NCBI GenBank assembly: GCA_038318935.1
Contig: JBBQCR010000001.1
Coordinates: 1-31,599, forward strand
DNA length: 31,599 nt
Direction: 5' to 3'
DNA from: Phycisphaerales bacterium
GTDB taxonomy: Bacteria; Planctomycetota; Phycisphaerae; Phycisphaerales; SM1A02
The notes under the pieces were generated by a model. The model did no database searches. It saw only the letters and a program-made list of their open reading frames with translations, and was not told where the DNA came from. Shown here piece after piece: positions 2 to 27,290 of the stretch. Numbering within the stretch: position 1 is the first letter of the stretch; each line of letters starts with the position of its first letter. A program made the translations under genes and the position numbers.

Positions 2-670
2 AACGAGATCGCCGCCGGCATCCGCATCGCGCTTGCTCCACGCGGTGTTGCTCACGTTGAAGTCCCATCGGTCCGCCGCATGATCGAAGGCGGTGCGTTT
101 GACACCATCTACCACGAACACCGCTGCTACTTCTCCGCTGCGGCGCTGCAGTCGCTCTTCCATCGGCATGGCCTGCGCATGATCGGCGCGGAGATCCTCG
201 AGATCCATGGCGGTTCGCTCCACGTGCGGCTGGCCCACGAAGGCGACGAATCGCAGGCCGACGCGATGGTGCGGGACGAGCGGGCGGCCGGTCTCTTCGA
301 CGATCGGTTCTATGCAGACTTCAAGGCTCGCGTGGCACGTGCGAAATCGGAGGTCGTCGGTGCCATCGACTCGTTCGGAACCGTCGCGGGATACGGCGCC
401 GCCGCCAAGGGTGTCGTACTCCTCAACTCGTTCGGTCTCGACGCGGAACGGATCCCCTGGGTCTCCGATGTCAGTCCACACAAACAGGGCCGATTCGTTC
501 CGGGCACTCGGCAACGGATCGTCGCACCGAGCGCGTTGCTTGAAGCCAAGCCTGACGCTGCCCTTCTTTTGCCCTGGAATCTGAAGGACGAGATCGTCCG
601 CATGAACAGGGCCTTTCTTGACCAAGGCGGCCGATTCATCGTGCCGATACCGAAGGTGGTGATCGTGTGA
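2..670 (+). CDS. NDP-hexose C3-methyltransferase (TcaB9/KijD1-like; Methyltransf_14-type C-terminus), 5'-truncated by the window edge
   Basis: The frame is open from base 2 (NEIAAGIRIALAPRGVAHVEVPSVRRMIEGGAFDTIYHEH). It carries the DTIYHEH motif, GYGAAAKG, DxSPHKQGRFVPGT and LLLPWNLKDEI, all typical of sugar C-methyltransferases. Confidence 0.9.
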   Translation, partial: NEIAAGIRIALAPRGVAHVEVPSVRRMIEGGAFDTIYHEHRCYFSAAALQSLFHRHGLRMIGAEILEIHGGSLHVRLAHEGDESQADAMVRDERAAGLFDDRFYADFKARVARAKSEVVGAIDSFGTVAGYGAAAKGVVLLNSFGLDAERIPWVSDVSPHKQGRFVPGTRQRIVAPSALLEAKPDAALLLPWNLKDEIVRMNRAFLDQGGRFIVPIPKVVIV

Positions 671-1209
671 CAACGCTGACCGGCACATCCATCCCTGTGG
701 TGACCTCCAACCCCAATTCCATGGCCAATTCCGGGGCCAATTCCGGGGCCAGTTCGATCGATGGCGTTCTTGTAGTTCCGCTGAAGCGCATCCCCGACGA
801 ACGCGGCACGGTGCTCCACATGCTGCGGGCCGATGATCCGCACTTCAAGGGCTTCGGCGAGATCTACTTCTCGACGGTGTACCAGCGCATCGTCAAGGGT
901 TGGCATCGTCACCGGGAAATGACCCTCAACTACGCCTGCGTCGCAGGTCGCATCAAGCTGGTGATGTTCGACGATCGCCCCAACTCGCCGACGCGCGGCG
1001 CATTGATGGAACGCTTCCTCGGACCGGACGATTACAGCCTCGTCCAGATTCCCCCGGGCGTCTGGAACGGCTTCAAAGGCATGAGCGAACCGGTGGCGAT
1101 CGTCGCGAACTGCTGCACCCACGCCCACGATCCGCTTGCGAATCGCAGCGAGCGCCTGGATCCTTTCAGCAACCACATTCCGTACGACTGGCAGGAGAAG
1201 TGCCATTGA
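667..1209 (+). CDS. rfbC: dTDP-4-dehydrorhamnose 3,5-epimerase family (RmlC/RfbC cupin)
   Basis: Motifs DERG, GEIYFS, VKGWHRH, GRIKLVMFDDRPNSPT, VQIPPGVWNGF. The GTG start overlaps the upstream TGA (GTGA). The true start could be later, since the N-terminus is a repeat. Confidence 0.85.
   Translation: MTTLTGTSIPVVTSNPNSMANSGANSGASSIDGVLVVPLKRIPDERGTVLHMLRADDPHFKGFGEIYFSTVYQRIVKGWHRHREMTLNYACVAGRIKLVMFDDRPNSPTRGALMERFLGPDDYSLVQIPPGVWNGFKGMSEPVAIVANCCTHAHDPLANRSERLDPFSNHIPYDWQEKCH
709..756 (+). repeat. Four imperfect 12-bp tandem units with core CCAATTCC, in frame in the rfbC N-terminus
   Basis: aaccccaattcc atggccaattcc ggggccaattcc ggggccagttcg, encoding NPNS-MANS-GANS-GASS. Confidence 0.85.
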
Positions 1210-2123
1210 GCGAGCGATCGCCATGCGTGATGGTCACCGGCGCTGCGGGCTTCATTGGCTCGCGCATCGTTCGGCGGCTCTCCGTTGGTGGTGGAACAGT
1301 GATCGGTGTGGTCCGCTCGCTGGACCCCGTTCGACTCGCTCGATTGCATGCGGCCCTTGGCCGCGATCACGACGACATTCGGATCGTCGCCTGCAATCTG
1401 CATGATCCCGCGGCGACGGCGACCCTCATCGCGGAGTATCGCCCCGATCGTTGCGTGCACGCGGCGTGGGAAGTCAACCCGGCAACCTATCGCGATGATC
1501 CGGCGAACGACCACTGGGTTGGGACGACGCTTCGCCTCGCAAGCCTGCTGCGAAGTAACGGCTGCACGTGGATGGGCGTCCTCGGCACTTGCATCGAGCC
1601 ACACGACGATGCGTCGCCGAGTTGCCGGTATGCCGCGGCGAAGTCGTCGCTGATGCGGTCGCTGGTCACCGAGTGTGCAAGTGACCCCCGACTTGCTCTT
1701 TGCTGGTGGCGCGTCTTCCAGCCCTACGGACCGGGCGAAGCGGCATCGCGACTCCTGCCATCAATCGCACGGGCACTTGCCGCTGGTGACTCCTTCACCG
1801 TCAACGCACCCGACGACGTGCGCGACTTCATCCATGTCGACGACATCGCCGATGCAATTGCATGCAGCATCCGAGAGGAGACGCGTGGAACGTTTGAGCT
1901 CGGCACGGGACTTGGCACGTCGCTCGCCTCCGTGGCATGTCGCATCGCCACGATCCTGGGCGCATCCGACGCGGTAGAGCTTCGCGAAGCGACAACGGCA
2001 AGCACGCTCGTTGCCGATCCTCGCCCGCTGATTCGGGCCACGCAGTGGGCACCTCGCATCTCACTCGACGCCGGACTTCGCGAACTCGTCGGCCGTCAAC
2101 GACAGAGCGCGGAGGCTGCATGA
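1206..2123 (+). CDS. NAD-dependent epimerase/dehydratase/4-ketoreductase (extended SDR)
   Basis: VMVTGAAGFIG, HAAW, YAAAK (YxxxK), RVFQPYGPGE, RDFIHVDDIA. A TTG start at 1206 overlapping the rfbC stop is preferred over the track start at 900; GTG 1227 or ATG 1230 are alternatives. Confidence 0.85.
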   Translation: MSERSPCVMVTGAAGFIGSRIVRRLSVGGGTVIGVVRSLDPVRLARLHAALGRDHDDIRIVACNLHDPAATATLIAEYRPDRCVHAAWEVNPATYRDDPANDHWVGTTLRLASLLRSNGCTWMGVLGTCIEPHDDASPSCRYAAAKSSLMRSLVTECASDPRLALCWWRVFQPYGPGEAASRLLPSIARALAAGDSFTVNAPDDVRDFIHVDDIADAIACSIREETRGTFELGTGLGTSLASVACRIATILGASDAVELREATTASTLVADPRPLIRATQWAPRISLDAGLRELVGRQRQSAEAA

Positions 2124-3316
2124 CCGTCCTCTGTCCGCTCTGTGCATCGTCGCACTTGGAACTGGTACTTCGGGCGAGTGACCAACCACTCCTGCTCAAT
2201 CACCTCTGTTCGACGCGAGTCGACGCGTTGGCGGCACCTCGCGGCGATCTTGAGTTTCATGGCTGCCTCGAATGCGGATTCGTCCACAACGCCGCGTTTG
2301 ACCCTGATGCAGTGCGATACGAACCGGGGTACGTCAACGATCAATCGCATTCGGGCGTCTTTCGGAGCCATCTCGATCGGGTGTCCGCTCGACTCGCGCG
2401 GCTCATCGACGGCGCACCGGGCGCGATCATCGAAGTGGGCTGCGGACAGGGCGATCTCCTGCGCGAGCTGTGCCTCCGAACAGGCCGGACTGGAATCGGC
2501 TTTGACCCGGCACTCCGCGCTTCAGCGCAGATCGCGCCCTCAGTCGAGGTCCGCGCTGCACGATTCGACGAACACTCGCTCGACCAGACGCACGCCCCGA
2601 TCGCTCTCTTGTTCTGTCGCCACGTCCTTGAGCATCTGCCCGAACCTGTCGCAATGATGCGGACGATGACCGCATCGATCGCCGATCACCCTCAGGCATC
2701 GCTCTACCTCGAAGTACCGACGTTTGAGTGGATCGCCGAGCATCGCGCCTTCTACGACCTCTTCAACGAACACTGCTCGCTCTTCAGCGCCGCGTCGATG
2801 ACGTACGCGCTGCAATCGACCTGCTGTCCGAGCAGCACAGTCGAGCACGTCTTCGACGGCCAGTATCTCACCGCGACCATGCGCCGCGGCGGCAGCGAGG
2901 CCGGATCGCGACTGACGCGTCCGCTTGATTTCGCCGCCGTGAGACGACACCTCGCTGACGAAAAGAATCGCTGGCATACGCGCTTCGAGGAGCTGCTGGA
3001 CGTGGGCCCCGTCGTCGTCTGGGGCGGCGCAGCCAAGGGGGTGAGCGTCGTGAATCACCTCGGCCTTGACCATCGTCGTCTTCCGCACATCATCGACATC
3101 AACCCCGGCAAACAGGGACGATTCGTCCCAGTCACCGGCCAACGGATCATCGCTCCGAACGAGCTCGCGAGCGTCCTCGCGACAGGCTCGACCCCCACGG
3201 TGGTGATCATGAATCCCAACTATGAACACGAGATTGCGCGACAGCTCGTCAGCCTCGGCATCGCCGCCCGCATCGAAGTCATCAGCGGGAGTGTGCCCCT
3301 TGCAGTTCAGCGTTGA
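2120..3316 (+). CDS. Second NDP-sugar C-methyltransferase-like class I SAM methyltransferase with N-terminal Zn-binding cysteines
   Basis: CPLC...CLECG, IIEVGCGQG, RHVLEH, LYLEVP, FNEH, WGGAAKG, DINPGKQGRFVPVTG, IMNPNYEHEI. ATGA overlap at 2120-2123 with GGAGG at 2111. Confidence 0.85.
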   Translation: MTVLCPLCASSHLELVLRASDQPLLLNHLCSTRVDALAAPRGDLEFHGCLECGFVHNAAFDPDAVRYEPGYVNDQSHSGVFRSHLDRVSARLARLIDGAPGAIIEVGCGQGDLLRELCLRTGRTGIGFDPALRASAQIAPSVEVRAARFDEHSLDQTHAPIALLFCRHVLEHLPEPVAMMRTMTASIADHPQASLYLEVPTFEWIAEHRAFYDLFNEHCSLFSAASMTYALQSTCCPSSTVEHVFDGQYLTATMRRGGSEAGSRLTRPLDFAAVRRHLADEKNRWHTRFEELLDVGPVVVWGGAAKGVSVVNHLGLDHRRLPHIIDINPGKQGRFVPVTGQRIIAPNELASVLATGSTPTVVIMNPNYEHEIARQLVSLGIAARIEVISGSVPLAVQR

Positions 3317-5465: not shown

Positions 5466-6601
5466 CGAAGATGTTCGGCTGCGGAGCAGGTTCGCAGCAT
5501 CGTGGCGCGAGCTGCGATCGCAATCGCGGCGCTGCGTCGTGGACTCTCCAGCACCGCGATCTGGGCGGCAGCCAGGGCCTCAACGTCATCGACAGGAACT
5601 CGCTCAAGACCACTGACGTGCTCCGCGATTCCAACCCCGTCGCTGACGATGATGGGCGTCCCGCGATCGAGGGCCTCGGCCGCCACGAACGAAAAACTCT
5701 CGAAGCGGCTCGGCACGACGACGAGCGATGCCCGATCCATCCGTGCCACGACTTCGGCATGCGGTAACGCTCCGACGATGTGGAATCGGTCGCGATAGTC
5801 ACGATCGACGAGTTGTTTCGTGAACGCCGCCATGCTCGTTCCGTCGGGCCCGGTCGGCGTGTCCATCCCGATGAGGAACGCGTGAGCCCGCGGTCGAGTG
5901 CGCAGAACGCGATTGCAGCTTCGCGCCCACACGTCGACCCCCTTCCTCGGTTGGACGGCGCCGACAAGCAGAATGCTCTCGTCTCGCTCCGCGGTCGACG
6001 GCGCATCGTCGCCGGCGCGAATCGGATAGGGAACTCTCCAAGGCGCCTGCCGAGTCTCCAGGTATTTCCCCAGCAGGTGTGACGTGCAGAGCACTCCATC
6101 GGCCGCGGCAAGTGCCTCTCGCTCCCACGCGTGATAGATGACTCGGCCGAAGCGACTCTGATCCGCGGATTGAATCGACTCCTCGAGGAACATCGGCGTG
6201 TGCGCGTGCACCACCATGGGAGTTGTGCCGACGTGCTGTCGCACGCGACTGCTCGTGAGTGATGCAAAACCCTCAGCCTGACAATCGACGAACTCGATCG
6301 CATCGAATGTCCTCGGCAACGTGAGCAGACGACGCGCGACCGCCCGGGACCAGAGCGCATAGCGATAGGGACGAATGCGCTCGATCCGCCGCAACGTCGG
6401 TATCCGGGCCGCAAATTTGTCGGTCATGTCCTCGGTGGTGATCGCATGGATCGTTGCCCCGCGAGGCAGTCGGTCCGATGGCCGGGTGATGAGGTCGACC
6501 GTCCAGCCCGCTTCGATCGCGGCATCGACGAAGCACGCGACGTACGTACCGATGCCGCCATGCGTCGGATGATGCTGAGCACTCGCGAGAAGCCAGCGCA
6601 T
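5324..6601 (-). CDS. Glycosyltransferase family 4 (GT-B)
   Basis: GGIGTY, VVHAHTP, LVGAVQPRKG, VVVPSRFESFSFVAAEAL, GTPIIVSD. The ATG at 6601 overlaps the upstream stop (TGATG), so it is preferred to the track start at 6715. Confidence 0.9.
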   Translation of the reverse strand: MRWLLASAQHHPTHGGIGTYVACFVDAAIEAGWTVDLITRPSDRLPRGATIHAITTEDMTDKFAARIPTLRRIERIRPYRYALWSRAVARRLLTLPRTFDAIEFVDCQAEGFASLTSSRVRQHVGTTPMVVHAHTPMFLEESIQSADQSRFGRVIYHAWEREALAAADGVLCTSHLLGKYLETRQAPWRVPYPIRAGDDAPSTAERDESILLVGAVQPRKGVDVWARSCNRVLRTRPRAHAFLIGMDTPTGPDGTSMAAFTKQLVDRDYRDRFHIVGALPHAEVVARMDRASLVVVPSRFESFSFVAAEALDRGTPIIVSDGVGIAEHVSGLERVPVDDVEALAAAQIAVLESPRRSAAIAIAARATMLRTCSAAEHLRQRVAFIEALPAPAAPADNDGLDRLDAFVASIEAEERAASVLSSATS

Positions 6602-9036
6602 CAGGCCGCCGATCCCTGTCGTGGTCGGCCTGCGCCGCCAAATGCCATGAGCATCCGTTCGACAAGACCGTCGTAGGTGTCGTGTTGGAGAACCGATGCC
6701 CGCATCGGCTCGCACAGCGCGCGACGAGCCCGAGGATCTTCCAGGAGTTGATCGAGGAGAGTGTGCAGTTGTGCAGCATTGCGAAACGTCGATCGCTCGA
6801 AGCCCGGCAGATCTGCGGCGACGCGTTCCGGCAGCAGCCGCATGTCCCGCAGGGTCTCGAAGAGCCCGGTATCAGTCCGTAGTTCCGGGATGTCATTGCC
6901 CGCGCGAAGGACTGCGACGTGCGCAGCGCGCCTTGGATCGCCGAGCAGTCGAATTTGTACGCTCACCAGTCGTTCCGCTTCGCAACATGCCACGTCGAAG
7001 GCTGCGTCCTCTTCGCGATGACGGACGAGCTCCGCGAGGCTGGTGAAGCAGCGCTCTTCAATGCGCTCGCGAATTCGCAGGAACGGCGCACGGAGAAAGT
7101 CCGCCGGGTTCCATCGCGACAGCATGCAGCCACCGCACGCCAGACCGTCCAGCAGTCGTTGATGAAGCGAGCTGTAGCCGTTCACCTGCAGACTGATCGC
7201 CGAGGCCTGATAGACCGCTCGCAGCTCACGCCCGTTGGCGACTTGCCCCGCAGCGAATTGGCTGAACTCGGGGTGCCGAACCCAACCGCTCCCGTACAGG
7301 CGGAATCTCCGTCCGCGCTGTCGAGCCCACGCGGCGGTCCAGGCGATCGCTTCGTGCCGATAGACACGGTCGTAGATCCTTGCGAGCTGGGGATAGATGC
7401 GCGACCGACGGAACTCCGGCGTCAGCGGCGTCAATCGCACGGTGGCTTCCGCCTCAAGCATCCGCTCGACGAGGTGTTGGCTGTTGAGCCAGCCATCGCT
7501 CGCGAGTTGTGTTCGGATCAGCCCGAGAAACGCCTGGCACAGGCGTGTGAACTCTGCCGGTGTCCCCGCGCAGATCAGAGCCAGCAGCTCCTCGGGCGAT
7601 TCCGATCCGTGGCTGACGAACGACACGTCGCAACGATGCGGCTCCAGCTCCGATTCGGGCAATCGCACATTCGAATAGGTCTCGGCGTCGGTCAAGTTGT
7701 TCGTGCCGATGCACCGCGCGATCGGATAGCCGTAGAGCGATTCAAGCACATGCGGAGCGTGCGTCACCACCAGATCCAACGCTCCCACCGATGCGCCGGC
7801 ATCCTTCGAGCACAGCCGATCCATGTGATCCTGCATCCAGCAGACATACGGAAGGTTGGCCGGAATTGCGTCCTGAAACTCACAACGGAGATGATTGATG
7901 ACCACCACACCGTCGCACTCCGCAGCAGCAAGCGCCGATCGGATATCGACCGTCGGCACATGCTCGTTGGCTTCCTTCACTAGCTCAAAGGTACAACCTC
8001 GGCGACGGAACGCCGCCGCCAGATCCCCCATCGCGTGCTGGATGACCGACGAGAATCGGGTCGTGAAACCCAAGAGGCGAAGCGGCGTTCCGCCGGAGGT
8101 TGCCTCGGCGTAGCGATGTTTCCACCATCCGACCGAGCGCTGCGCGTACCGACAACGAAGGAGTTCCGTGAGGCGATCCTGCTTTGAACGCATCGCGGCG
8201 TGCAGCGGCGCGTAGAAGGCGGTGTCGATCGCTGGCGGCGTCCAGCCTGGGCGGCGGTTGGTGATGGTGTGGCTCGCCGGTGCACGCCACGGATGATCGG
8301 CGAGGAACAATCGGTAGCGATTGACGAGGTCATCCCCGACGAGGCAGGTGACGCGACCGCTTACGAGATCCGAAGCATCGTCCAGCAGCGCCAGCCAGAT
8401 GCTGAAGAGTTCGACGTCGGATTCCAACACGTCGATCGTCGCCGCGTATCCAGCGGGATCGCGCTGCGTGAGGAGCCTTGCAAAGAGTTGCGGAGTCGGA
8501 GTGCCGAGCAGACTGAAGGAACTGGTCGGTGTGAAGGGCGGAAGCGCGATGGATGCGGCGCGGGCGGCGTGATCCGCGAGTGGAACGACGAGATCGATCT
8601 TGCGGTCGGCGCGATCGCGAACGATCTGGTGATTGCCCTTGATGCTACGGAAGACATGCAGTCTTTCCGGAAGCGAGGATGGCAGCGAGGAGAGCGAGGG
8701 TACCGTGCGAACCAGCACCGCACGTCGCTCTGCGTAGCGCGAGCGAAGGGTCGCTGCTGGGATCTCCCCGGACGGCAGTCTCGAAAGCTGCTGCGCAAGC
8801 CCCGCAAGCTGCGGATCGGCAAGCAGTCCATCGACCGCGTTCAGGACGCGGAGCGCAAGACCGCTCAACCCGATCCGCACCATCGCCCGAATCATCGCGA
8901 GGAGAACCGGCAGATCCCCCGCATCAGCAATCCGAACGTACGCAGACTCGATCGCTGATTCGGGATCGGCTCCGTTCAGCGCTGCGCTGATCGCTGCGAG
9001 ATCCGTCGCGTCCCGATCGGCGAGCGTCGCGCTCAT
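6601..9036 (-). CDS. 811-aa CgeB/Glyco_trans_1_2-like glycosyltransferase with a Maf-like N-terminal region
   Basis: The C-terminal half has PYVCWMQD, CDVSFVSHGS, FRLYGSGW, YQASAISLQVN and RLLDGLACGG. The N-terminal half has FRSIKGN and IDVLESDVELF...RVTCLVG, recalling Maf proteins. ATGA overlap at 9033-9036. Confidence 0.6.
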   Translation of the reverse strand: MSATLADRDATDLAAISAALNGADPESAIESAYVRIADAGDLPVLLAMIRAMVRIGLSGLALRVLNAVDGLLADPQLAGLAQQLSRLPSGEIPAATLRSRYAERRAVLVRTVPSLSSLPSSLPERLHVFRSIKGNHQIVRDRADRKIDLVVPLADHAARAASIALPPFTPTSSFSLLGTPTPQLFARLLTQRDPAGYAATIDVLESDVELFSIWLALLDDASDLVSGRVTCLVGDDLVNRYRLFLADHPWRAPASHTITNRRPGWTPPAIDTAFYAPLHAAMRSKQDRLTELLRCRYAQRSVGWWKHRYAEATSGGTPLRLLGFTTRFSSVIQHAMGDLAAAFRRRGCTFELVKEANEHVPTVDIRSALAAAECDGVVVINHLRCEFQDAIPANLPYVCWMQDHMDRLCSKDAGASVGALDLVVTHAPHVLESLYGYPIARCIGTNNLTDAETYSNVRLPESELEPHRCDVSFVSHGSESPEELLALICAGTPAEFTRLCQAFLGLIRTQLASDGWLNSQHLVERMLEAEATVRLTPLTPEFRRSRIYPQLARIYDRVYRHEAIAWTAAWARQRGRRFRLYGSGWVRHPEFSQFAAGQVANGRELRAVYQASAISLQVNGYSSLHQRLLDGLACGGCMLSRWNPADFLRAPFLRIRERIEERCFTSLAELVRHREEDAAFDVACCEAERLVSVQIRLLGDPRRAAHVAVLRAGNDIPELRTDTGLFETLRDMRLLPERVAADLPGFERSTFRNAAQLHTLLDQLLEDPRARRALCEPMRASVLQHDTYDGLVERMLMAFGGAGRPRQGSAA

Positions 9037-15868: not shown

Positions 15869-16600
15869 TCACTCGATTTCGTCCGGCAGCTCCGCGTTGT
15901 GGTAGACCTTCTGTACGTCGTCGTGATCTTCGATGGCGTCGATGAGCGCCAGAAGTTTTTTCGACTGATCGAGATCGAGCGCCACCGTCGACTGCGGTAG
16001 GTAGGTGATCTCCGCGTTCTCGATCGGAAATTGCGCGGTCTCCAGCGCGATCTTCACCCGTTCGAAGTCGGCTGGTTTGCAGGTGACTTGAACGAAGTCG
16101 CTGTCGAGCGCGACGTCCTCAGCGTCGGCAGCGAGCGCGACCTCCATGACCGACTCTTCCGGCGCGGTGGCGCTCAGGAGGAGGATCACTCCCTGCTGCG
16201 TGAATCCGAACGCCACCGAACCAGGCACGCCCATCTTGCCGCCGTTTTTGTCGACGAGCGTGCGCAGCTCCGCTGCCGTCCGGTTGGCGTTGGCGATGAG
16301 AAGATCGATCAGAATCGCGGTGCCACCGGGGCCAAATGCCTCGTACCGCACCGACTCGTAGCGCTCGGTGCTTCCTTCGCCGGTGCCCTTGCGAATCGCC
16401 TTCTCAATCGTGTCACGCGGCATGTTTGCCGCCTTGGCCTCGTCGATCGCGATGCGCAGCGAGGCATTGAACTTGACATCACCGCCAGACTGGGCGGCGA
16501 CGATGATCGCGCGGCTGCATTTGCTCCAGGCCTTGCCGCGCTTTCGATCGACGGCTGCCTTGCGATGCTTGATGTTCTTCCACGCACTGTGTCCGGCCAT
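15869..16600 (-). CDS. yebC: YebC/PmpR family protein
   Basis: MAGHSAWKNIKHRK, AKAANMPRDTIEKAI, YEAFGPGG, IEDHDDVQKVYHN. Confidence 0.95.
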   Translation of the reverse strand: MAGHSAWKNIKHRKAAVDRKRGKAWSKCSRAIIVAAQSGGDVKFNASLRIAIDEAKAANMPRDTIEKAIRKGTGEGSTERYESVRYEAFGPGGTAILIDLLIANANRTAAELRTLVDKNGGKMGVPGSVAFGFTQQGVILLLSATAPEESVMEVALAADAEDVALDSDFVQVTCKPADFERVKIALETAQFPIENAEITYLPQSTVALDLDQSKKLLALIDAIEDHDDVQKVYHNAELPDEIE

Positions 16601-16630: not shown

Positions 16631-19600
16631 TCAAGTTGAAGGAGCAGCGATCGGCGCGATCTCAGGATCGCCCTTCTCGCTCTGTTGAAGTTTGCGCTCG
16701 GCCCGGTCAATGACCCGGCCGTAGTTGCGTTCCCACCACGTGGGGCCGTCGATGACCTCGACACCGTACTCGGAACGCTGGTGGTTCCCAAGAACGCGAA
16801 GCATCGTGTCACGTGGATACTCGCGGTCGGCAGTGCGGCGAACGTCACGCCACGCGTTTCTCGCCCCTTCGCTGTCGCCCTTCCGCCACAGGGCATCACC
16901 GAGATGATCGATCGGCTCGACGCCTGGATTTGTCCCACCAAGCTTGATCGCCTCGCGAAGGAAGGCGATGGCCTCGTCGAAAGCGCCTTGCTTGTATCGC
17001 AACCAGCCGATCGAATCGAGAATCGCCGCGTCGCCCGGACGGGCTGCGTGTGCTTTCTCCAGCATTCCGGCAACATCCGGCCCGCTCTCACCATGTTCCA
17101 GTCGGTCCCATGCGAGATTGTTCAGGCAACTTGGATGCGATGGATCGACCTCAAGTCCGCGGGTGAGGATCACGTTCGCGCCTTCGCGATCGCCGATCAT
17201 CGCGAACAACCCGGCAAGCTGATACAGGGCGTCCGGCTCGCGCTCGGTCGGCGTCGATTCCTTGGCGAAGGGCCGGCCCCCACGGGCCCGCACCAGTTCC
17301 AGCAGCGCAATTGAGTGCTCGGCTCGAGCGCCCGCCGCTGCGTCGAGGGCGAAGGCGATGCTCGCCAATCGCGTCGCGGTCATGATGTCCATGCGATCGT
17401 CAGCGCGAACGAGGGTGGCGACAAATTCTGCGCCGTCGGCGTATCGACGAGCGTCGGCGAAGTATTGCCCCGCCGCTTGCCAGGCTTGGGCATCGCGCGA
17501 CGTGACACCGGAAGGCGCGCCCATCGCTGCGGATGCGGCTCGTTCGGCGAGCGCCCTCCGACGCGCCGCCCCTTCCGGGCCGGGCGATTCCAGCGTCACC
17601 AGAACCGCTGCGCGGAGGATCACCGCAGGGTCGATGCCCTGGGCGTCCGACCCACCCGGACTTGTCCGTTCCACAATCGCATCACCGAAGCGGATCGTCA
17701 GTCGCGATCTCGCGTCGCCGTCCGCGGGCAAGCGGATCGCCAACTCAAGCGCTGCAAACACATCGCGAAGCGACAGCGAGTCCAGGCGCTCGGCGAGCCC
17801 TTCAAGAATCGGGACTGCCTGAGCTCCGTTGTCCATGGCGATGAACTGCGCGCCCTGGGTCAGGTCGCGGCGCGGGCTGGGTGGCTTCAGGGCCAGCAAC
17901 GCCGTCGCGACCACATCAGCATCCGCCGTGCGATTGAGCGCCCGCAGCGGCAATTCCAGAAGCGGGAACGCGACGGGGTCGTGGATCGGTTGCTCGGAGC
18001 GAGCCATCAGTCGTTCGAGCGCCTCGTTGGGATGGCCGTCAGCGATGGTCGTCTCTGTCCAAAGTTGCCAAACACTCGCGTCAGCGGGTGTCGCTGCGAT
18101 GCGCGCGTCGAGGACCAGCAGCGCCTCGCCGCGCCGATTGCCGGCGATCAGCGTGCGCACCACCGTCCGAAGCAGGTCTGGTTCCGTCAGGTCGGATGCG
18201 GCCCGAGCGAACAGCATGTCGAGGGCGTCCGCGCCGCGACCGACGCTGAAGAGTCGTTCAACTGCAAGTTGGTTCGCAAGCGTTCCCTGCGGATCGGCTT
18301 CGATCGCCTCGCGACGCAGTTGTGCCGCCGTCGCCTTGTCATCGGCGGTGGCGCTGGCACCCTGGGCACGCGCGTCCGCCAACCCCAGAAGTAGTCGCCA
18401 TGCTGGCTGGAACGTGTGATCAACTGCGACCGCGTTCCGAGCGCTCGCAAGCGCATCGCGAAGTGCGTCGGCGGATCCACGACGGGCAGCGATGTCGGCG
18501 AGAGCCTGGGCGTTCAGTGTCTGGGCTCGGGCGCGGATGCTTCTCGAAGTACCCGCCGCTGCGTCGGCTGCCCGCGCTGCATCGCTCGCCCTCGGTCCAT
18601 CGCCGCAGCGGCGCCACGCTCTCGCCAACTCCAGTTGCGTCGCCGCGTCGTTGGCCTCGGCCTGTCGTGCAAGGTCGTAGAGCAGCGCGCCTTCTTCGGC
18701 TTCACCAGCCGTGAAGACCAGCGCCCGAAGGATCGCTCGGCCTGCTGCCGGACCCGTCTTTGAGCCAAGTTCCCAGGCCTCGCCCGTGCGACCGAACGTC
18801 GTTGCCAGACGCATCCGAAAGGCAATGCTCGTCGGTGTCTCCGGTACAGCGCCACTCGCATCAAGGAGCGTCGGGGCGTCGAGTCCGCAACGGATCACCG
18901 CGTCGATCAGGGCCTCCGGATCGGTCGCACATACCTCAAGCAACGACACAGCAACGGTCACCGCTTCCGCTGGTGAAGCCCGCGCCGCTTCGAAGAGGAG
19001 CGCCCGCAACACTTGAGCGTCGGGGTTCGAACGATCGAGCCCATCCAGCAGGATGGCCCGCGCGTCCTTGGGATTGAGCGCCGCAGCGAGCCGAACGAGC
19101 GACGGGTGATGGTCTTGATTCCGATCGAGCGACGCGGCAGCCCAGTCGTTGAACTGCGTGGATCCCGGAGCCACCGCAGCGACCCACCCAACCAGCGTGA
19201 TGAGCTCGTCGCTTGGCAGGCTCTCGGTGTTGAGGACGATCGGTTGCAGCAGATCAAAGGCCTGACCGCTGCGACCGATGGCCAGACGACCCCACACACG
19301 GCGGGCCAGCAGCGGCATGGAAATCGCCGCGCCGCGTGCGGCGGGAGCGCCGTCCCAGGAGATCACGGCATCAGCGATGCGATCGAGCCGCGCTTGGGCG
19401 TCACCGAGCGTGACAAACGTCTCGGCCAACTGCCATGGTTCAACACCCTGTTGCGAACGGCGAACCGACGAGCTCAAGACCTCGACGAGCGCTGCATCGG
19501 CATCGAGTTCCTTGAGCGCACGGGCCACCGAGAGTTCGACAGCATTCTCCGCCTCCGGTCGAAAACCGGCGAACGCATTTCGCCGAGCCTCCGTCCCCAG

Positions 19601-20236
19601 CAGCAGCAGTGGCGCCAACGACACGACCGCTCGGCGCGACTCGCCGCGATTGGCGGCCTGCAGCCCCAACGACAAGAGCGCTTCGGGGCGGGAAGGATCG
19701 GTGTCGAGCAACCGCTGGTACAAGCTGGCGGACTTCTGTTGATTGCCAGCACGGGCGTAGGCGCGGGCAAGCTCGCCGAGAATCTCCGGTGAGCCGGGAT
19801 CGAGGGCGAGCGCCGCTTCCAGTTTCGAAATCGCGACGAGCGTCTTGCCGTCGAGATTCGCCGCCTTGCCTTCAACGTATTGTTTGAGTGCCTGCAGGCG
19901 AGCGTCGCGATCGGCAGGTGGCGATGACGCCTGGATGCCTCCCGCGATCGGGCCGATTTCCTCGCGGATGCGGGAGTACACCTCTGCCAGGGAGAGTTGC
20001 GAGAGCGGACCTCGCGATGGATCGAAGACGCCTGGGAGGAGGAGCGGCGGCGGAGCGACGACACTGTCGGCAGCCTCCGGGGGGGACGCCTGAACGGCTC
20101 TTGCCGCGACGAGCACTGCCGACGATTTTTCCGTCGCGGCGAACAGCACTCCGCCGTTGAGTATCACAAGCCCCAACAGCGCCGACGGGCGGCGCTCGCC
20201 TCGAGTTCCGCTTGGAACCCGACGCGACGGCCTCAC
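16631..20236 (-). CDS. Large tetratricopeptide-repeat protein, probably exported or membrane-anchored
   Basis: N-terminal hydrophobic stretch LLGLVILNGGVLFAA. TPR-type repeats (LEAALALDPGSPE, LNNLAW, ILDSIGWLRYKQG, DHLGDALWRKGD). GTGA overlap at 20233-20236. Confidence 0.75.
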   Translation of the reverse strand: MRPSRRVPSGTRGERRPSALLGLVILNGGVLFAATEKSSAVLVAARAVQASPPEAADSVVAPPPLLLPGVFDPSRGPLSQLSLAEVYSRIREEIGPIAGGIQASSPPADRDARLQALKQYVEGKAANLDGKTLVAISKLEAALALDPGSPEILGELARAYARAGNQQKSASLYQRLLDTDPSRPEALLSLGLQAANRGESRRAVVSLAPLLLLGTEARRNAFAGFRPEAENAVELSVARALKELDADAALVEVLSSSVRRSQQGVEPWQLAETFVTLGDAQARLDRIADAVISWDGAPAARGAAISMPLLARRVWGRLAIGRSGQAFDLLQPIVLNTESLPSDELITLVGWVAAVAPGSTQFNDWAAASLDRNQDHHPSLVRLAAALNPKDARAILLDGLDRSNPDAQVLRALLFEAARASPAEAVTVAVSLLEVCATDPEALIDAVIRCGLDAPTLLDASGAVPETPTSIAFRMRLATTFGRTGEAWELGSKTGPAAGRAILRALVFTAGEAEEGALLYDLARQAEANDAATQLELARAWRRCGDGPRASDAARAADAAAGTSRSIRARAQTLNAQALADIAARRGSADALRDALASARNAVAVDHTFQPAWRLLLGLADARAQGASATADDKATAAQLRREAIEADPQGTLANQLAVERLFSVGRGADALDMLFARAASDLTEPDLLRTVVRTLIAGNRRGEALLVLDARIAATPADASVWQLWTETTIADGHPNEALERLMARSEQPIHDPVAFPLLELPLRALNRTADADVVATALLALKPPSPRRDLTQGAQFIAMDNGAQAVPILEGLAERLDSLSLRDVFAALELAIRLPADGDARSRLTIRFGDAIVERTSPGGSDAQGIDPAVILRAAVLVTLESPGPEGAARRRALAERAASAAMGAPSGVTSRDAQAWQAAGQYFADARRYADGAEFVATLVRADDRMDIMTATRLASIAFALDAAAGARAEHSIALLELVRARGGRPFAKESTPTEREPDALYQLAGLFAMIGDREGANVILTRGLEVDPSHPSCLNNLAWDRLEHGESGPDVAGMLEKAHAARPGDAAILDSIGWLRYKQGAFDEAIAFLREAIKLGGTNPGVEPIDHLGDALWRKGDSEGARNAWRDVRRTADREYPRDTMLRVLGNHQRSEYGVEVIDGPTWWERNYGRVIDRAERKLQQSEKGDPEIAPIAAPST

Positions 20237-21549
20237 TTCTTGGAACCCTTCTTGACCGACTTCGAGGTCCCCTTTGTGGCTGGCTTGGCCACCAGCTTCG
20301 CCGCAGTTTTGCCAGCGGGCTTTCCTGCGGCTCGGGTTCCCGATTTCGCGACGGCCCGAGCCTTTGGGCTACTGGCGTGTGACTTGTTGGCGTTAGATCC
20401 CGTTGAGGTCTTCGCTGATGGTTTGGTTGTTGGCTTGGCTGCTGGTTTGGCTGTTGGCTTCGGGAGCGCGCCATGTCCGCTCTTCTTGGCAACGGTGTTC
20501 GCGTGCTTCTCCAACACCTTCGTCCCGGGCTTCGCTGCGGACTTCGTCTCCGCCTTCACCGGCGGCTTGCCTGCATTCTTTGCTGCGGCCTTCGCGTCGG
20601 CGATTGTCTTCAAGGCCTTCGCGTCCCGCGCCGCAATCTTGGCCGCGGCCAGCGCCACCTGCTGCGCTGCGGCCTGCGCGGCTTGCTGAGCCACCTGTCG
20701 CGCGGCCTTGGCTTCCGCTCGTGCAGCAGCCTTGGCCGCCACCTTTGCGGCCTCCGCTCGCTCGGCCTCGAGCTTCGCCGCTGCTTCAGCGGCCTTCGCA
20801 GCAGCTTCAGCCGCCTTCTCTGCCTCGCGCCGCGCGGCGCGATCGGCCGACTGCTGGGCGGCCAGTCGCGCCTGCTTGAGCTTCTGCATCGCCTTGGGAT
20901 CTTTCTCCCAGACCGAGTCGGCGAAGCCAACGAGTGCGTGATGGACCTTCAGGGCGTCTTCGATAGTGTTGTGCTGCTTGGTGAGGGCGTGCGCAAGATC
21001 CGCCGTCGGTGTTTCCTTCGCGACGAACTTGCTGTCGCGGAAGATGTCCGCAAGCTGATCGTCGACCGGAATGACAGCGTGCCCGAAGTGGAACAGCAGG
21101 ATGCGGGCCGCGACGAACGGCAACATGCCGTCGAGATTTTCGACGTACGTGCGCTGCTCGCGCTTTCCCATGGCGCTGACGTGGTCGAGGCTGACTTTGT
21201 GCTCGCGCTTGTAGAGATCGTTCAACGAGCGGCGCATTCGGTTCGACCGTTCGTCGACGAAGGGGTACCGCAAGCCGATGATGGCGATGATCTCTTCCGG
21301 CAGGTCGACGCGCAACTCGTTGAAGTCGACACATTCCTTGCGGATGCGTTCGATCGCCGAGACCGCTTGCGATGTCGACGCCTCCCAGAGCAGAAAGCTC
21401 TGGACCAGCGTCGCGATCGGATCGGTCGGCGCTTCGGGAGCGCTGGCGGGTGCGTATCGCTTCAGGATCGGCGCGAGCTTCGTAGCGGACAGCGTCGTCG
21501 CAGAGGCGTCAGTCTTCACAGTGGTGTTCCCTCGAAAGGGCTCCTGCAT
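20233..21549 (-). CDS. HhH-GPD/endonuclease III-like domain fused to an Ala/Lys-rich coiled coil and a histone-H1-like basic tail
   Basis: DPIATLVQSFL, DFNELRV and LDGMLPFVAARILLFHFGHAVIPVD align with the Nth HhH-GPD motif. There is no FeS Cys motif. The roughly 215-aa tail has AEAAAK and KPAAK repeats. Confidence 0.7.
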   Translation of the reverse strand: MQEPFRGNTTVKTDASATTLSATKLAPILKRYAPASAPEAPTDPIATLVQSFLLWEASTSQAVSAIERIRKECVDFNELRVDLPEEIIAIIGLRYPFVDERSNRMRRSLNDLYKREHKVSLDHVSAMGKREQRTYVENLDGMLPFVAARILLFHFGHAVIPVDDQLADIFRDSKFVAKETPTADLAHALTKQHNTIEDALKVHHALVGFADSVWEKDPKAMQKLKQARLAAQQSADRAARREAEKAAEAAAKAAEAAAKLEAERAEAAKVAAKAAARAEAKAARQVAQQAAQAAAQQVALAAAKIAARDAKALKTIADAKAAAKNAGKPPVKAETKSAAKPGTKVLEKHANTVAKKSGHGALPKPTAKPAAKPTTKPSAKTSTGSNANKSHASSPKARAVAKSGTRAAGKPAGKTAAKLVAKPATKGTSKSVKKGSKK

Positions 21550-21561
21550 TCTCGTCTGGGG

Positions 21562-22092
21562 CTACGCCGTCGTGGGCGAAAACCCGTCGGTGTGTGGAAT
21601 CTTCTCGCCGTGGTCGTCGCCCCGGTCGTCGTAGCTGTCGTCGGCGGCGTCGTCGCTGGCCACCTCGGGCTGATCCGTCTGAGCGACCTGCTGCAGCGCG
21701 CTGTAGAGCGCCGCTTCACGTTTCATCGAATCGTCAATCTCAAAGACCAGGCGCGGCACGCGCCGCAATCGCGTGGCCTTGCGCACGACTCCCTCCAGGT
21801 GCCGGGTGCCGGACACGAGTCCCGAGAGGGTGAGTCGTCCCCGGTCGGCGGGCAGCACGCTGATCCGCACGCGGGCGTGCGTCGCATCGGGCGAGAGGTC
21901 GACACCAACGATCGACACCATTCCCTGCACGCGGGGATCGTTCATTCCGCGCAGAAGTCGCTCCTGCAGGACCCGCAGGATCAGCGAAGCGATCTGGGCG
22001 TTTCGCGACGAGGGCGCACCGCCGCGCTCGGCCCCGTCAAGGGCCGCCGAGAGCGATGAGGCGGGATGCGGTCGTCGTGGATCCTCGGTCAT
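21562..22092 (-). CDS. rbfA: Ribosome-binding factor A
   Basis: DPRVQGMVSIVGVDLSPD...ARVRIS, LRRVPRLVFEIDDS; located directly after infB. Confidence 0.95.
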   Translation of the reverse strand: MTEDPRRPHPASSLSAALDGAERGGAPSSRNAQIASLILRVLQERLLRGMNDPRVQGMVSIVGVDLSPDATHARVRISVLPADRGRLTLSGLVSGTRHLEGVVRKATRLRRVPRLVFEIDDSMKREAALYSALQQVAQTDQPEVASDDAADDSYDDRGDDHGEKIPHTDGFSPTTA

Positions 22093-22173: not shown

Positions 22174-25100
22174 TCAGAGATTGCGGGCCACACTGATCGT
22201 CCTGTAGCACTCGAGAACGTCGCCAACCTTGATGTCGTCGTAGCCGACGATCTTCATGCCGCACTCCTGGCCGGCGCGAACGTCCTTCGCGTCGTCCTTG
22301 AATCGCTTGAGCTGCTCGAGACGGCGATCCTTCTCGATGACGATGCCGCCGCGCGTGACACGGATCTGTGCGTTGCGCTCGATGGTGCCGTCCAGCACGT
22401 AGCAACCGGCGATCATGCCGACCTTCGAAATCCTGAACGCTTGCCGCACTTCGGCGTGTCCGAGCACTTCGAGCTTGAGCTCGGGGGCAAGGAGACCGGA
22501 CGCGGCCTTCGTGACGTCGTCGGTCAGGTCGTAGATGACGTCGTACAGGCGGATCTCGATGCCCTTCGCCTCTGCGAGGTTACGAGCCTTCGAACTGCTG
22601 GTGACGTTGAAGCCCACGATGATCGACTTGGTTGCTTCGGCGAGTGCGATGTCGCTCTCGTTGATGCCACCGACCGCACAGTGCCGCACGCCGACCGCGA
22701 CCTCGTCGGTTGAGATCTTCTGAAGAACAGCCCGCAAGGTCTCGACCGATCCCTGCACATCGCCCTTGACCACCAGCGAGAGTTCCTTGCGCTGACCCTT
22801 CTCGAGGTGGGCAAAGATGTTGTCGAGTGTGATCTTCGGGGCCGCGAGCTCACGCTCGCGGTCGAGACGACGACGTTCTTCAGCAGCCTGTTCCGCTGCC
22901 TTCAGCGAATCGACGACGTAGAACTTGTCGCCCGCGTCAGGAAGCTGATCGATGCCGGAGATCGCGACGGGCGTCGAGGGAATCGCTTCCTGACCGCGGA
23001 CACCGCGATCAGTCACGATGTCGCGCACACGACCGAAGCCGCGACCAACCACGATGAAGTCGCCCTTCTTGAGGGTGCCTTCCTGGACGACGACGTTGGC
23101 CACGGGGCCACGACCCTCTTCCATCTTGGCTTCCAGCACCGTTCCGCGAGCGGCACCACCGAAGTCGGCGGTCAGCCCGAGCAGATCGGCCTGATAGTCC
23201 AGAATGTCGATGAGATCCTGAATGCCCTCGCCCTTGGTGGCGCTGGTACGGATCACTTCGGTCGTGCCGCCCCACTCGGTGGGATTGAGTTCGTGCTCGG
23301 CAAGCTGTCCGAGAATGCGACGGATGTTGGATTCGGTCGCCTCGGGCTTGTCGATCTTGTTGAGCGCCACCACGATCGGGACGCCGGCGGCCTTCGCGTG
23401 GTTGATGCTCTCGACAGTCTGCGGCATCACGCCGTCGTCGGCGGCGATGACGAGCACCACGATGTCGGTCACCTTGGCGCCGCGGGCACGCATGTTGGTG
23501 AAGGCCTCGTGGCCGGGAGTATCGATGAAGGTGACGACGCGATCGCGCTCGCCGGTCTTCACCGGTACCTGGAAAGCGCTGGTGGCCTGGGTGATGCCGC
23601 CCGCTTCGCCCGACGCCACGTTGGCGTTGCGAATCTTGTCAAGAAGACTCGTCTTGCCGTGATCGACGTGACCGAGGATGGTCACCACCGGAGCACGCGG
23701 ACGGACATCCACCTTCTCGCGATCGGTGAACCGGGCTTCGATGATCTCGGCTGCGGACTTCGACTCGACGACAAGCAGCTCGATGTCGAACTCGAACATG
23801 ATCTCCATCGCCCGCTCGCTGTCGATCGCGGAGTTGATGGTCGCGACTGTGCCGGAGAGGAACAGCTTGCGGAGGATGTCGACGGCCTTGACGCCGGTCG
23901 CTGCGGAAAGCTCCTTGATGGTGATCGGCTCACTGACGCGGATCGGCTCGTGCTCCGGCTGACCGCCACGCTGCGCGGGCTGCGACTTGCGCTGACTCTC
24001 GCGGCGATGGTCCTTGAAGAAGCCGCCGGAGCGCGACAGTCGATCCGATCGCTCGCGCAGATCCTGATCGCGCCACGGTTCGCCGGGCACCGCAGGCCCA
24101 CCGGTCGCGGGACCGCCGCCTGCTCGGGCGAGTCGCCCACTTCGACCGGTCTCGTCACGTCGACCGCCACGGCCAGCCGCAGCCCCGCCACGACGATCGT
24201 CAGGCCGACCTGCGCCACTTGCGCCGCCGACGCGACCGACCCGCATCGGACCGCCGGTGCCGCCGGTCGCGCTGCGCGGACGCGGCGCGGGCAACTGCTC
24301 GGGCGCTTCGATGCGAATGACCTTGGGGCCCGACATCGCAGACTTGATGGGCGACTGGAGCTTCGGACCTGCGGCAATCACATTGTCTGGGCGCTTCGGA
24401 ACGTTCATCACCGGCGGGCCACCCGCGCCGGAGTCGTCGCCGGAACTGCTGTCGCGGCTACCAGCGTCGGTGCGTGGATCCGTCTGCGGACCGGTCCGCG
24501 CCGGCGGACGGGCGGTGCCGCGATCGCGCGATGGCGGTCCAGCCGAGGCACTCGCGGCGACGCCGGGTCGGTGCGACGGGGTTGCCGGTCGGGCAGGAGC
24601 CGCTGGAGTCGCCGCAGGCTTGTTCATCGCCGAGGGAATCGGTGAGGGAACACCGGGCGCGCGGGCAGGGCGAACCGGAGCGTCGGTCTTGGTGGCGGTC
24701 GGGTCAGCCGCCGGTGCGTGCGGCTGCTTGCTCGGAGCATGCGGCGTGGCCGCAGCGGTCTCTGCCCGCAAGCCGCCGTCAGACCTTGGGCCAGACTTGG
24801 TGTCGTGTTGGGAATCGCGCTGGCTCTGATCTGCCTTCGGAGTTGGCGTCGCCTCGGTGCGCGCCGTTGGCTTGTGATCAACAGCGCCCGAGCGCTCGTG
24901 CGCCTTGGTGTCCGCCGAGCGATCCGCCGGGCGATCCGCTTGGTGCTCGGACCGTCCCGCATGCGTGTCTCGCTTTGCGCCGAGTCCGTGCTCGACGCCG
25001 CGATCGTGGGCGTGTTCGGCCATCACGTCACGCTTCGATTCGTGCGGCGGATGTCCGAACTCCGAGTGCGTGGCCGTCTTCGCTGCTGGCGTGGCGGTCT

Positions 25101-25545
25101 CGCGGGTCGGATGGTCGACCTTGTTCTCGTGACCTGCTGCGGTGCTGGTTGTGGCGGCCGCGTCGACCGGCTTCTTCGCAGCTTTCCGCGCGATGCGCGG
25201 TGCCTCTTCCGTGGTGACGTCGCTGCCAGCGTGCGATCCAGTTTGCCCGGATTGGGCGTGCCCAGCCCGGGCTGCAGGCTGAGTAGACGCGCGGCTCTCT
25301 TGCGCTTCGGCGTGTCCCTCCGCGTGATGCTCGTGCCCGTGCGCGTGCTCAGCACCGGACGCGACCGCGTGACCGCTGAACCACTCGCGAATGGTCTGGG
25401 CCAGACCAATCGAGACGGGCGAGAGGTGCGTGGTGATGTCGGGGATCTCCTCCACCTGACACTTAGCCACGATGTCCTTCGAATTGACGCCGAGCTCCTT
25501 CGCGAGCTGGTGGACCTTCAAGGCGGCCTTCTTCGTCGTCGTCAA
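22174..25545 (-). CDS. infB: Translation initiation factor IF-2 with a long low-complexity N-terminal region
   Basis: [11 protein letters not shown]-domain, [32 protein letters not shown] start with GGAG RBS. Confidence 0.98.
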
Positions 25546-25712: not shown

Positions 25713-27098
25713 CTACGGCTTCCCACCGCCCAAGATGTTGTCCGCGGCCGCTTCCGCAGCGGCGTCCGGCACCACCGCAGAGGCTCGCGCCGAATAGCCA
25801 CCCGAGGTGCCACTCGAAGTGCTGCTCGAACCACCAGCCCCGCCCAGAATGCTGTCCGTCGCCGCCCGATCTTCGGCCGCCCTCGCGTCCGACACCAGCT
25901 TGTCGCGGGCCTGCTGCTCCGCGACTTCCTTCGACCGCTCGGAACACGTCGCGACGACGCGGTCCGCGAGTTCTTCGCTCATCTCCAGTTCCTGCACCAA
26001 CACCGGCGTGCCGACTTCTTCGATGTCGAAGACGCTGATCATGCCCAGTGCGCCCATGCGATCGAGCATCTCGTCGGTGATGCCCTCGACCGAACGCACG
26101 GTGCTCTCGAGGATCTCAAGACCCTTCGCGAACTCCGCTGGCGTGAGGATGTCGATGTCCCAACCGGTGAGTCGCGCGGCCAGGCGCACGTTCTGGCCTC
26201 GTCGACCGATCGCCAGCGACAACTGATCGTCGCGGACGATGATCGTCGAGCGGCCGAGTTCGAAGCACAACGAAACTTCCTCAACCTCCGCCGGCTTCAA
26301 TGCGTTGGCGATGAGAATCTGGCTCGACTCGTTCCAGCGAACGATGTCGATCTTCTCGCCACCGAGTTCATCGACGATGTTTCGGATGCGGCTGCCGCGC
26401 ACACCGACGCACGCGCCGACGGCATCGACCTTGGAGTCGAGCGACGACACGGCGAGCTTGGTTCGGAACCCGGGCTCGCGAGCCATGGCCTTGATCTCGA
26501 TCACCCGCTCGGCAACTTCAGGCACTTCCGTCTCGAAGAGCTTGCGAATGAAGTCTGGATGCGAGCGTGAGAGGACGATCTTGACCTGATTGATCGCGTC
26601 ACGGACGTCGAGGATCAGGCATCGGACACGATCGCCGGGCTGGAACTGCTCGCCGGGAATCTGTTCCGAGCGGGGCATGAAGCCTTCCGCACGTTCAATC
26701 TGGACGACCAGCGCGCCACCCTCGTAGCGCTGTGCCACGCCAGTGACCAACTCGCCCTGTCGCTTCGCGAATTCATCGAGGAGGCTGTTGCGCTCGTCCT
26801 CGCGGAATCGTTGGATCATCACCTGCTTGGCGGTCTGAGCGGGAATGCGGCCGAGCTTCTCAAGTCCGATCTCCTCGCGTTCGACATCCTCGCCGTTCTC
26901 CCCCTCAACATTGCGCCACAGGATTATCTTGCCGCTGATGCGATCCATCTCGCAACCGAACTCTTCGGTATCGAGCGAGTTGAAGTGCTTGCGGGCCGCG
27001 CTGATCATCGCCTGCTCAAGATCGTGGATCAGGAGTTCGCGATCGATGTTCCGGTCGCGGGCGATCGAATCGAGGATGCGGAGGGTTTCGGAGTTCAT
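25713..27098 (-). CDS. nusA: Transcription termination/antitermination factor NusA
   Basis: [69 protein letters not shown]. Confidence 0.98.
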
Positions 27099-27240: not shown

Positions 27241-27290
27241 AGAAAAAGGCACAGGCCACGCGAACTGGCGTAGCCCGCGTGGCCTGCTTT
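27241..27290 (-). terminator. Putative intrinsic terminator or attenuator upstream of nusA
   Basis: An 11-bp perfect stem (27252-27262 with 27276-27286) is followed on the minus strand by UGCCUUUUUCU. It lies about 140 nt before the nusA ATG. Confidence 0.6.

Follow-up and report, generated by a model that had tools for sequence, protein, structure and literature searches.

A planctomycete protein family with an endonuclease III-like fold, conserved beside 30S-related genes and possibly working with the ribosome

What does a protein with the fold of a DNA-repair enzyme do next to genes of transcription and translation? The question is raised by contig JBBQCR010000001.1 of a Phycisphaerales bacterium (assembly GCA_038318935.1), of which positions 1 to 31,599 of the forward strand were analysed and are called the window here. 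The gene at window 20233-21549(-), designated X, has a longest open reading frame (ORF) of 438 amino acids reaching ATG 21549, and all residue numbers below follow this ORF. A preliminary description of the sequence had presented X as an endonuclease III-fold protein with an H1-like tail in the nusA-infB-rbfA operon; the ORF call showed the frame to be real and the observation as a whole was confirmed. X turned out to represent a protein family in which the canonical catalytic residues have drifted while a new motif became fixed, and which sits in 30S-related operons of a phylum that appears to lack the maturation factor RimM.

All homologues of X begin with MKTD or VKTD, which matches residue 11 of the 438-residue ORF. 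Since the database gene call is likewise 428 residues long and GAGG is found about 10 nucleotides 5' of GTG 21519, this GTG is probably the true start. The gap between the rbfA stop codon and X would then be 42 nucleotides and not the 12 given in the preliminary description. The gene and its parts, all on the minus strand, are the following.

20233..21519 (-): gene X, probable coding sequence of 428 amino acids plus stop (homologue starts, database gene call, upstream GAGG)
20902..21486 (-): HhH-GPD/endonuclease III-like core, residues 22-216, isoelectric point (pI) 6.1, net charge -4, one Cys (profile, AlphaFold2, Foldseek, VIA-align, composition)
21307..21327 (-): family signature D75-F-N77-E78-L-R80-V81 (N and R invariant in the phylum-wide orthologues)
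21088..21165 (-): remodelled helix-hairpin-helix, residues 129-154, with G141, L143 (second Gly), P144 and F145 (lyase-Lys site) (alignments)
21061..21063 (-): codon of Asp163, at the canonical catalytic Asp position (conservation given below)
20602..20898 (-): Ala/Glu/Lys-rich continuous helix, residues 218-316, net charge about +12, holding a 21-nucleotide repeat (x2.2) (model, composition, repeat scan)
20236..20601 (-): disordered polycationic K/A/P/T/S-rich tail, residues 317-438, net charge +25, with a 12-nucleotide repeat (x3.7) encoding KPxx units (model, composition, repeats)

Single-sequence assignment by Pfam and NCBIfam proved unusable: X gave no match to PF00730 (HhH-GPD) even at E <= 1, and only a spurious BAR_3 match and a weak match to NF053634, the model of the Deinococcus radiodurans glycosylase DR2438, were obtained. 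A family profile built from 68 homologous N-domains, on the other hand, found D. radiodurans EndoIII-1 in the PDB at E 1.4e-8 over 163 residues and Escherichia coli Nth (2abk) at E 1.5e-3, so that homology to HhH-GPD proteins shows by sequence only with the family profile. The AlphaFold2 model of residues 11-225 (predicted local distance difference test, pLDDT, 94.7) has the two-domain, all-helical fold with a six-helix barrel, as Foldseek and VIA-align confirmed. Best among the Foldseek matches was D. radiodurans EndoIII-3 (template modelling score, TM, 0.74; E 3e-7; VIA-align Z 18.1 over 207 residues), followed in order by EndoIII-1, ROS1, Bacillus EndoIII, OGG1, MIG, Nth and MagIII; Schizosaccharomyces pombe Mag2 (4hsb) was also among the matches, with no likeness in sequence beyond the fold. 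The comparison with Nth and MIG that the preliminary description had proposed thus came out in favour of a glycosylase fold, and a structure search of AFDB Swiss-Prot returned glycosylases only. By model and profile, the core of X is an HhH-GPD/endonuclease III fold.

EndoIII-3 (4uob) and EndoIII-1 (4unf/8a5f) are the nearest solved structures and also the nearest sequence relatives of X, although identity is only 15-18%. Like X, they are atypical paralogues coexisting with a canonical Nth. Both possess an Fe-S cluster and lack a long basic tail, and EndoIII-1, in contrast to X, keeps the lyase Lys (LPGVGVKTA) and has no D-x-N-E-x-R-V motif.

The segment YVENLDGMLPFVAARILLFHFGHAVIPVDDQL at window 21052-21147 aligns without gaps to the HhH-GPD core, both in the profile alignments with EndoIII-1 and 2abk and in a MAFFT alignment with the Nth of the same genome. 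In these alignments LDGMLPFVAAR of X pairs with LPGVG(V/R)KTA; the lyase Lys (E. coli K120) corresponds to F145, the second hairpin Gly to L143 and the canonical Asp to D163. The hairpin is predicted to keep its geometry, with G141, P161 and D163 present, yet its sequence is non-canonical, and both hairpin and Asp vary across the family. The Cys-x6-Cys-x2-Cys-x5-Cys motif of the [4Fe-4S] cluster is absent from X and from a set of 285 homologues of Phycisphaerae or Gimesia type. Every one of these residue-level statements in the preliminary description (gapless alignment, Phe for Lys120, Leu for the second Gly, Asp kept, no Cys cluster) was borne out.

Compared with E. coli and Bacillus Nth (2abk, 1orn), X therefore shares the two-domain fold, gapless across hairpin, loop and Asp, but differs in the lost Lys, hairpin Gly and cluster, in having no match to TIGR01083 (the Nth equivalog) and in its acidic core. 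The genome encodes a canonical Nth away from X (TIGR01083 247 bits, Lys kept, eight Cys, pI 9.5) and, also elsewhere, a MutY with canonical motifs and Tyr at the Lys position (MAFFT). The idea that X is the only EndoIII of the organism is thereby ruled out.

The distribution of the family was examined next. An exhaustive phmmer search gathered 951 clusters at 50% identity, 679 of them at E <= 1e-10, most members being 230-330 residues long with a short basic tail. Those with named hosts come from metagenome-assembled genomes (MAGs) of Phycisphaerae and from Planctomycetaceae such as Gimesia; they are annotated as "hypothetical" at NCBI and automatically named "endonuclease III" in UniRef and JGI. 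There is no Pfam model for the family, and our literature search found no published paper on it. In a profile search, 249 of 301 Planctomycetota genomes contained the gene at 1e-5, mostly in single copy. The phyletic survey suggested by the preliminary description thus indicates that the family is Planctomycetota-specific and phylum-wide, as far as sequence searches can tell.

Residue conservation was followed in the clade of the window (68 sequences) and in a phylum-wide set of 68 species-level orthologues from about 50 families, aligned to the profile; alignment of the weakest orthologues is less certain in the C-terminal half. In the window clade N77, R80 and R101 are invariant. Across the phylum, N77 and R80 are each present in 68/68 orthologues and D75 in 61/68, which makes D75-x-N77-E/D78-x-R80-V81 the sole universal feature. 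This motif is absent from canonical Nth, MutY and D. radiodurans EndoIII-1, which have unrelated residues there. The former active site behaves differently. The Lys position is never Lys phylum-wide, G141 is kept in 23/68, and Asp163 is Asp in 24 of 58 aligned sequences (18 of 28 among matches of at least 70 bits). The Asp is replaced even in orthologues that keep the synteny described below: by His in G093, Ser in G284 and G139, Asn in G228 and G049, and Thr in G192 and G017. On the cases checked, MAFFT agreed with the profile alignment.

A Cys motif of the form C-x5/6-C-x2-C-x5-C is kept in 30/68 of the phylum-wide orthologues, which argues that the family ancestor was an Fe-S, EndoIII-like protein; on this pattern the cluster is lost in Phycisphaerae, Planctomycetaceae and others. 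The replacement of Asp in many syntenic orthologues, together with retention of the Fe-S motif in about half of the family, argues that glycosylase chemistry is not what selection preserves. Judging from these alignments, phylum-wide selection on X is preserving something other than the glycosylase active site. The claim of a repurposed glycosylase fold in the preliminary description is thus strengthened by the replaced Asp, the Lys site that is never Lys and the new invariant motif.

The picture within the window clade itself is nevertheless one that an active monofunctional DNA glycosylase, of unspecified substrate, would present, at least in Phycisphaerae. Asp163 is kept in 67/68 of these sequences, the Lys position is aromatic in 67/68 (F 40, Y 27), G141 and P161 are found in 64/68 and 65/68, and W55, at the Gln41 wedge position of Nth, in 63/68. 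MutY, MIG, AlkA and MagIII (structural matches at Z 14-15.6) likewise lack the lyase Lys and keep the Asp, and MIG (Tyr126) and AlkA (Trp218), like the MutY of this genome, carry an aromatic side chain in place of the Lys. Such an enzyme would be cluster-less like AlkA, MagIII and OGG1, it would be co-expressed with growth-related operons, and its tail would aid DNA scanning. The best sequence and structure relatives of X are all DNA glycosylases, and the members containing the Fe-S motif tie the family to real EndoIII-like enzymes. Against this, orthologues of X often replace the Asp, in two cases in lineages of its own class; the core is acidic, the G-x-G of the hairpin is lost, and no substrate-pocket signature is shared with the monofunctional enzymes. 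X, for its part, has a motif of its own, a long tail and a place in ribosomal operons. A role in repair would also leave the recurrent site after rbfA or rpsP unexplained. Bacterial glycosylases normally have no such tails, unlike eukaryotic ones, whose DNA search is modulated by disordered tails (PMC9266487). The closest solved structure, EndoIII-3, has no detectable EndoIII activity (PMC10523315, PMC9268735). On balance we regard an active glycosylase as unlikely.

Where, then, does the gene reside? The preliminary description had set X in the nusA-infB-rbfA context and overlapping a TPR gene, and this is what the window contains: the order nusA-infB-rbfA-X-TPR-yebC, all on the minus strand, with no convincing terminator between nusA and yebC in a promoter/terminator scan of the window. 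The sequencing runs that cover the locus are DNA metagenomes.

25713..27098 (-): nusA
22174..25545 (-): infB, encoding IF-2 (Pfam)
21562..22092 (-): rbfA, directly upstream of X (Pfam, synteny)
16631..20236 (-): TPR protein of 1201 amino acids with a hydrophobic segment at the N-terminus; the X stop codon overlaps the first start codon of this gene (GTGA) (ORF and domain match)
15869..16600 (-): yebC, TACO1/YebC family

Conservation of this neighbourhood was assessed in two sets, one of 80 mostly Phycisphaerae genomes and one, counted by comparison of coordinates, sampling 121 high-quality Planctomycetota genomes evenly, of which 95 have X at 1e-8; the counts describe samples of genomes that are related to one another. 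In Phycisphaerae-type loci, rbfA is directly upstream of X in 78 of 78 testable cases and yebC follows within 5.2 kb in 46 of 54, the remainder having hisG next. In the phylum sample rbfA adjoins X in 19 of the 95 genomes, with three more within 3 kb, rpsP (bS16) lies directly upstream on the same strand in 37, and yebC up to 5 kb downstream on the same strand in 40. At least one of these three associations is present in 83/95. In five genomes at first scored as devoid of X, a diverged copy bearing the signature motif directly follows rpsP. Gimesia aquarii has the same order as the window, genome G107 has rpsP-X-TPR-yebC and genome G127 ffh-rpsP-X-maf-DUF192-release factor. The link to the translation machinery is consequently stronger than the preliminary description had it, and the conservation of the operon in the phylum, which it had proposed to check, is confirmed. 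YebC itself binds ribosomes and acts as a translation factor (PMC12234827, PMC11990639, PMC11381339). In Planctopirus limnophila, nusA is Plim_2559 (PMC10632474). A replacement of truB after rbfA by X was considered and ruled out; truB sits elsewhere in the genome.

The slot right after rpsP is normally occupied by rimM, and in E. coli a genetic link connects RimM with RbfA, both of them late factors of 30S maturation. RimM (PF01782) was detected in only one of the 121 high-quality Planctomycetota genomes, which is 4% contaminated, and in 10/10 bacterial control genomes; TIGR02273 (RimM) had no match in five complete Planctomycetota genomes. At the rpsP locus of the window's genome (G000:C17, L191) the order is rpsP-trmD-rplS, with no rimM in between. 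Planctomycetota thus appear, by these searches, to be without a near-universal 30S maturation factor. X resembles RimM in position and in presumed role, about 40 Planctomycetota genomes having X in the slot after rpsP and others beside rbfA, but not in structure: RimM consists of a beta-barrel and a PRC domain, X is an HhH-GPD protein, and neither PF01782 nor TIGR02273 matches anything in the phylum's complete genomes. It is gene position that links X to 30S assembly.

Taken together, the recurrent placement of X behind two different 30S genes and ahead of a translation factor gene, in Planctomycetota that lack RimM, speaks for the small subunit or its rRNA as target. We therefore favour, tentatively and at somewhat less than even confidence, the reading that X has been repurposed into a mostly non-catalytic protein that binds nucleic acid and acts together with the 30S/translation machinery. 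The family would have derived from an Fe-S endonuclease III-like glycosylase and would no longer be under selection for base-excision chemistry. Its mildly acidic core, with the two-domain cleft and the invariant D-x-N-E/D-x-R-V patch, would form a specific recognition module, to which the rigid helix of about 100 residues and the polycationic tail of about 120 residues would, in the window clade, add non-specific polyanion affinity and reach. X is predicted to share a transcript with nusA-infB-rbfA and yebC, and with ffh-rpsP in other lineages; from these operons we infer that X would act on the small ribosomal subunit or its rRNA while the subunit matures or translates, and not on damaged DNA. 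Nucleic-acid binding without base excision has a precedent within the fold in the non-catalytic Mag2, which, unlike X, is eukaryotic, DNA-directed and without a polycationic tail.

Several facts weigh against this proposal. We know of no HhH-GPD protein that binds RNA or ribosomes. The Cys4 motif kept in part of the family corresponds to a cluster that in Nth and MutY serves DNA binding, and the window clade, with Asp163, W55 and the aromatic residue at the Lys position, resembles active monofunctional glycosylases in its residue pattern. Nor do the neighbouring genes share one function: the conserved block also includes hisG and an apparently exported TPR protein. A glycosylase gene in a ribosomal operon has a precedent, since E. 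coli mutM is co-transcribed with rpmB-rpmG. Finally, one family, f38, has neither X nor RimM. Because of these points, both an active glycosylase and a protein reading or shaping DNA remain live rivals. A bolder form of the favoured reading would make X a ribosome-biogenesis or translation factor built on a DNA-glycosylase fold, as a non-orthologous stand-in for RimM or a partner of RbfA/YebC, reading a feature of 16S rRNA or the pre-30S particle through a remodelled base-flipping cleft and the D-x-N-E-x-R-V patch, with the tail holding it on the particle. In so specific a form we consider it doubtful.

The tail bears on the question of DNA more directly. In the full-length model a single continuous helix (residues 218-316, pLDDT 82-96) is followed by disorder over residues 317-438. 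The preliminary description had seen here an Ala/Glu/Lys coiled coil followed by KPAAK/KPTTK repeats. The Ala/Glu/Lys helix and the KPxx-repeat tail stand; the coiled coil is not established, because the composition of the helix (44% Ala, EAAAK-like heptads) fits a single stable helix equally well, and EAAAK repeats are known to form such helices. Lys/Ala/Pro-rich, repeat-containing, disordered polycationic segments occur also in Chlamydia Hc1/Hc2, Pseudomonas AlgP and mycobacterial HupB (PMC5676037, PMC9239181). X differs from these H1-like proteins in that its tail is joined to an enzyme-derived core through the 100-residue helix, and PF07382 (HC2) gave no match to X at E <= 1, so the likeness to H1 is one of composition only.

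Tails of this kind are widespread in the same genome. K/A/P-rich extensions were found on topoisomerase I, a sigma-70 factor, RsfS (with a weak HC2 match), a DksA-like zinc-finger protein, a HARE-HTH protein, uL5 and a HAD/PNK-like phosphatase (loci C5:4102-7014, C43:8963-10174, C63:4909-5895, C186:4986-6236, C167:536-1195, C214:2645-3397 and C12:3026-3988). The tail thus looks like a lineage-wide polyanion-binding appendage put on DNA-binding and ribosome-binding proteins alike; being shared by many unrelated proteins, it does not mark X as a nucleoid protein. Within the family its length ranges from 11 to more than 650 residues, with a median of 39 among representative clusters, and its net charge is at least +5 in 49/68 of the phylum-wide orthologues and below +5 in 19/68, some being neutral or acidic. 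The most extreme case, the orthologue at L140 (G017:C14), 489-3089, keeps the Fe-S motif and carries an extension of 657 residues made of repeated EEKPKR(K/R)xKK units. In G017 and G075 the long C-terminal extensions might have been fusions to TPR or other domains; this was rejected, as they contain low-complexity repeats only and no Pfam domain.

A non-catalytic DNA-binding or nucleoid-associated protein, either a reader of lesions or structures or an architectural protein whose H1-like tail coats or bridges DNA, would agree with much of this. Every known relative of the fold binds double-stranded DNA, helix and tail together carry a net charge of about +37, retention of the Fe-S loop in about half of the family fits DNA binding, the catalytic residues are dispensable across the family, and topoisomerase I, the sigma factor and the DksA-like protein bear similar tails. 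But the tail does not define the family, neither an HC2 nor an H1 profile matches, the same tails decorate RsfS and uL5, an invariant patch on the folded core would be unexpected for a protein coating bulk DNA, and the synteny points to ribosome genes. Condensation of the nucleoid, as proposed in the preliminary description, gains no specific support from a tail that decorates so many proteins and varies so greatly in length and charge. We consider a DNA-binding role of this kind unlikely.

The downstream neighbours of X belong with it to a conserved block. Between X and yebC lies a conserved gene for a large TPR protein of 480-1260 residues, hydrophobic in a segment at its N-terminus (L001, L003, L005, L029, L192), and X-TPR-yebC travels as a block, after rbfA or after rpsP, while in f38 the TPR gene persists without X, in the order nusA-infB-DUF503-rbfA-hisG-TPR-yebC. 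In several lineages hisG (ATP phosphoribosyltransferase), an unrelated metabolic gene, stands inside this translation-related cluster in the arrangement rbfA-(X)-hisG-TPR-yebC (L043 (G032), 6375-7244; L031, 8300-9169). The yebC homologue of the complete f38 genome (G132:C1:1112562-1113020) has three in-frame stops, two TGA and one TAG, and may be a pseudogene.

Movement as a block, and the overlap of X and TPR genes by 4 nucleotides in several genomes, would suit a protein acting mainly as an adaptor for YebC, RbfA or the TPR protein. The invariant polar motif, at a place where canonical Nth, MutY and EndoIII-1 have unrelated residues, would suit such an adaptor or, alternatively, a protein that binds a small nucleotide ligand where the base pocket used to be, and in two families X adjoins maf, a nucleotide pyrophosphatase gene. 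The tail would then be an incidental feature of the lineage. However, X was not found fused to any partner domain, and f38 keeps TPR and yebC without X. We judge this explanation improbable, and a nucleic-acid binder of the 30S/translation machinery remains the reading we prefer.

Some further features of the window and its genome were recorded. A strong, GC-rich 16-bp hairpin with a T-run at 27251-27287(-), about 150 nucleotides upstream of nusA, could be an operon-leader terminator or attenuator. In IF-2 (22174-25545(-)), a low-complexity N-terminus of about 530 residues, rich in His, Ala, Pro, Arg and Gly, precedes the IF2_N and GTPase domains, and within infB, at 24001-25000, GC content climbs to 0.72. 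Besides rbfA in the window, a small contig of this MAG (G000:C529:1914-2138(+)) gives another RBFA-domain match, a partial one of 73 bits that spans profile positions 1-79; it may represent a strain variant, a contaminant or a fragment.

HhH-GPD proteins are among the best-studied DNA-repair scaffolds and, to our knowledge, all characterised members act on DNA. Should X prove to act on ribosomes, RNA or the ribosome would be the target of an HhH-GPD protein for the first time, the fold would extend to RNA, and a gap in planctomycete ribosome assembly would be filled. If X is instead a glycosylase, it would represent a new, cluster-less and tail-bearing bacterial type. In either case the family can be addressed directly in Planctomycetes that are open to genetics, such as Planctopirus and Gimesia.

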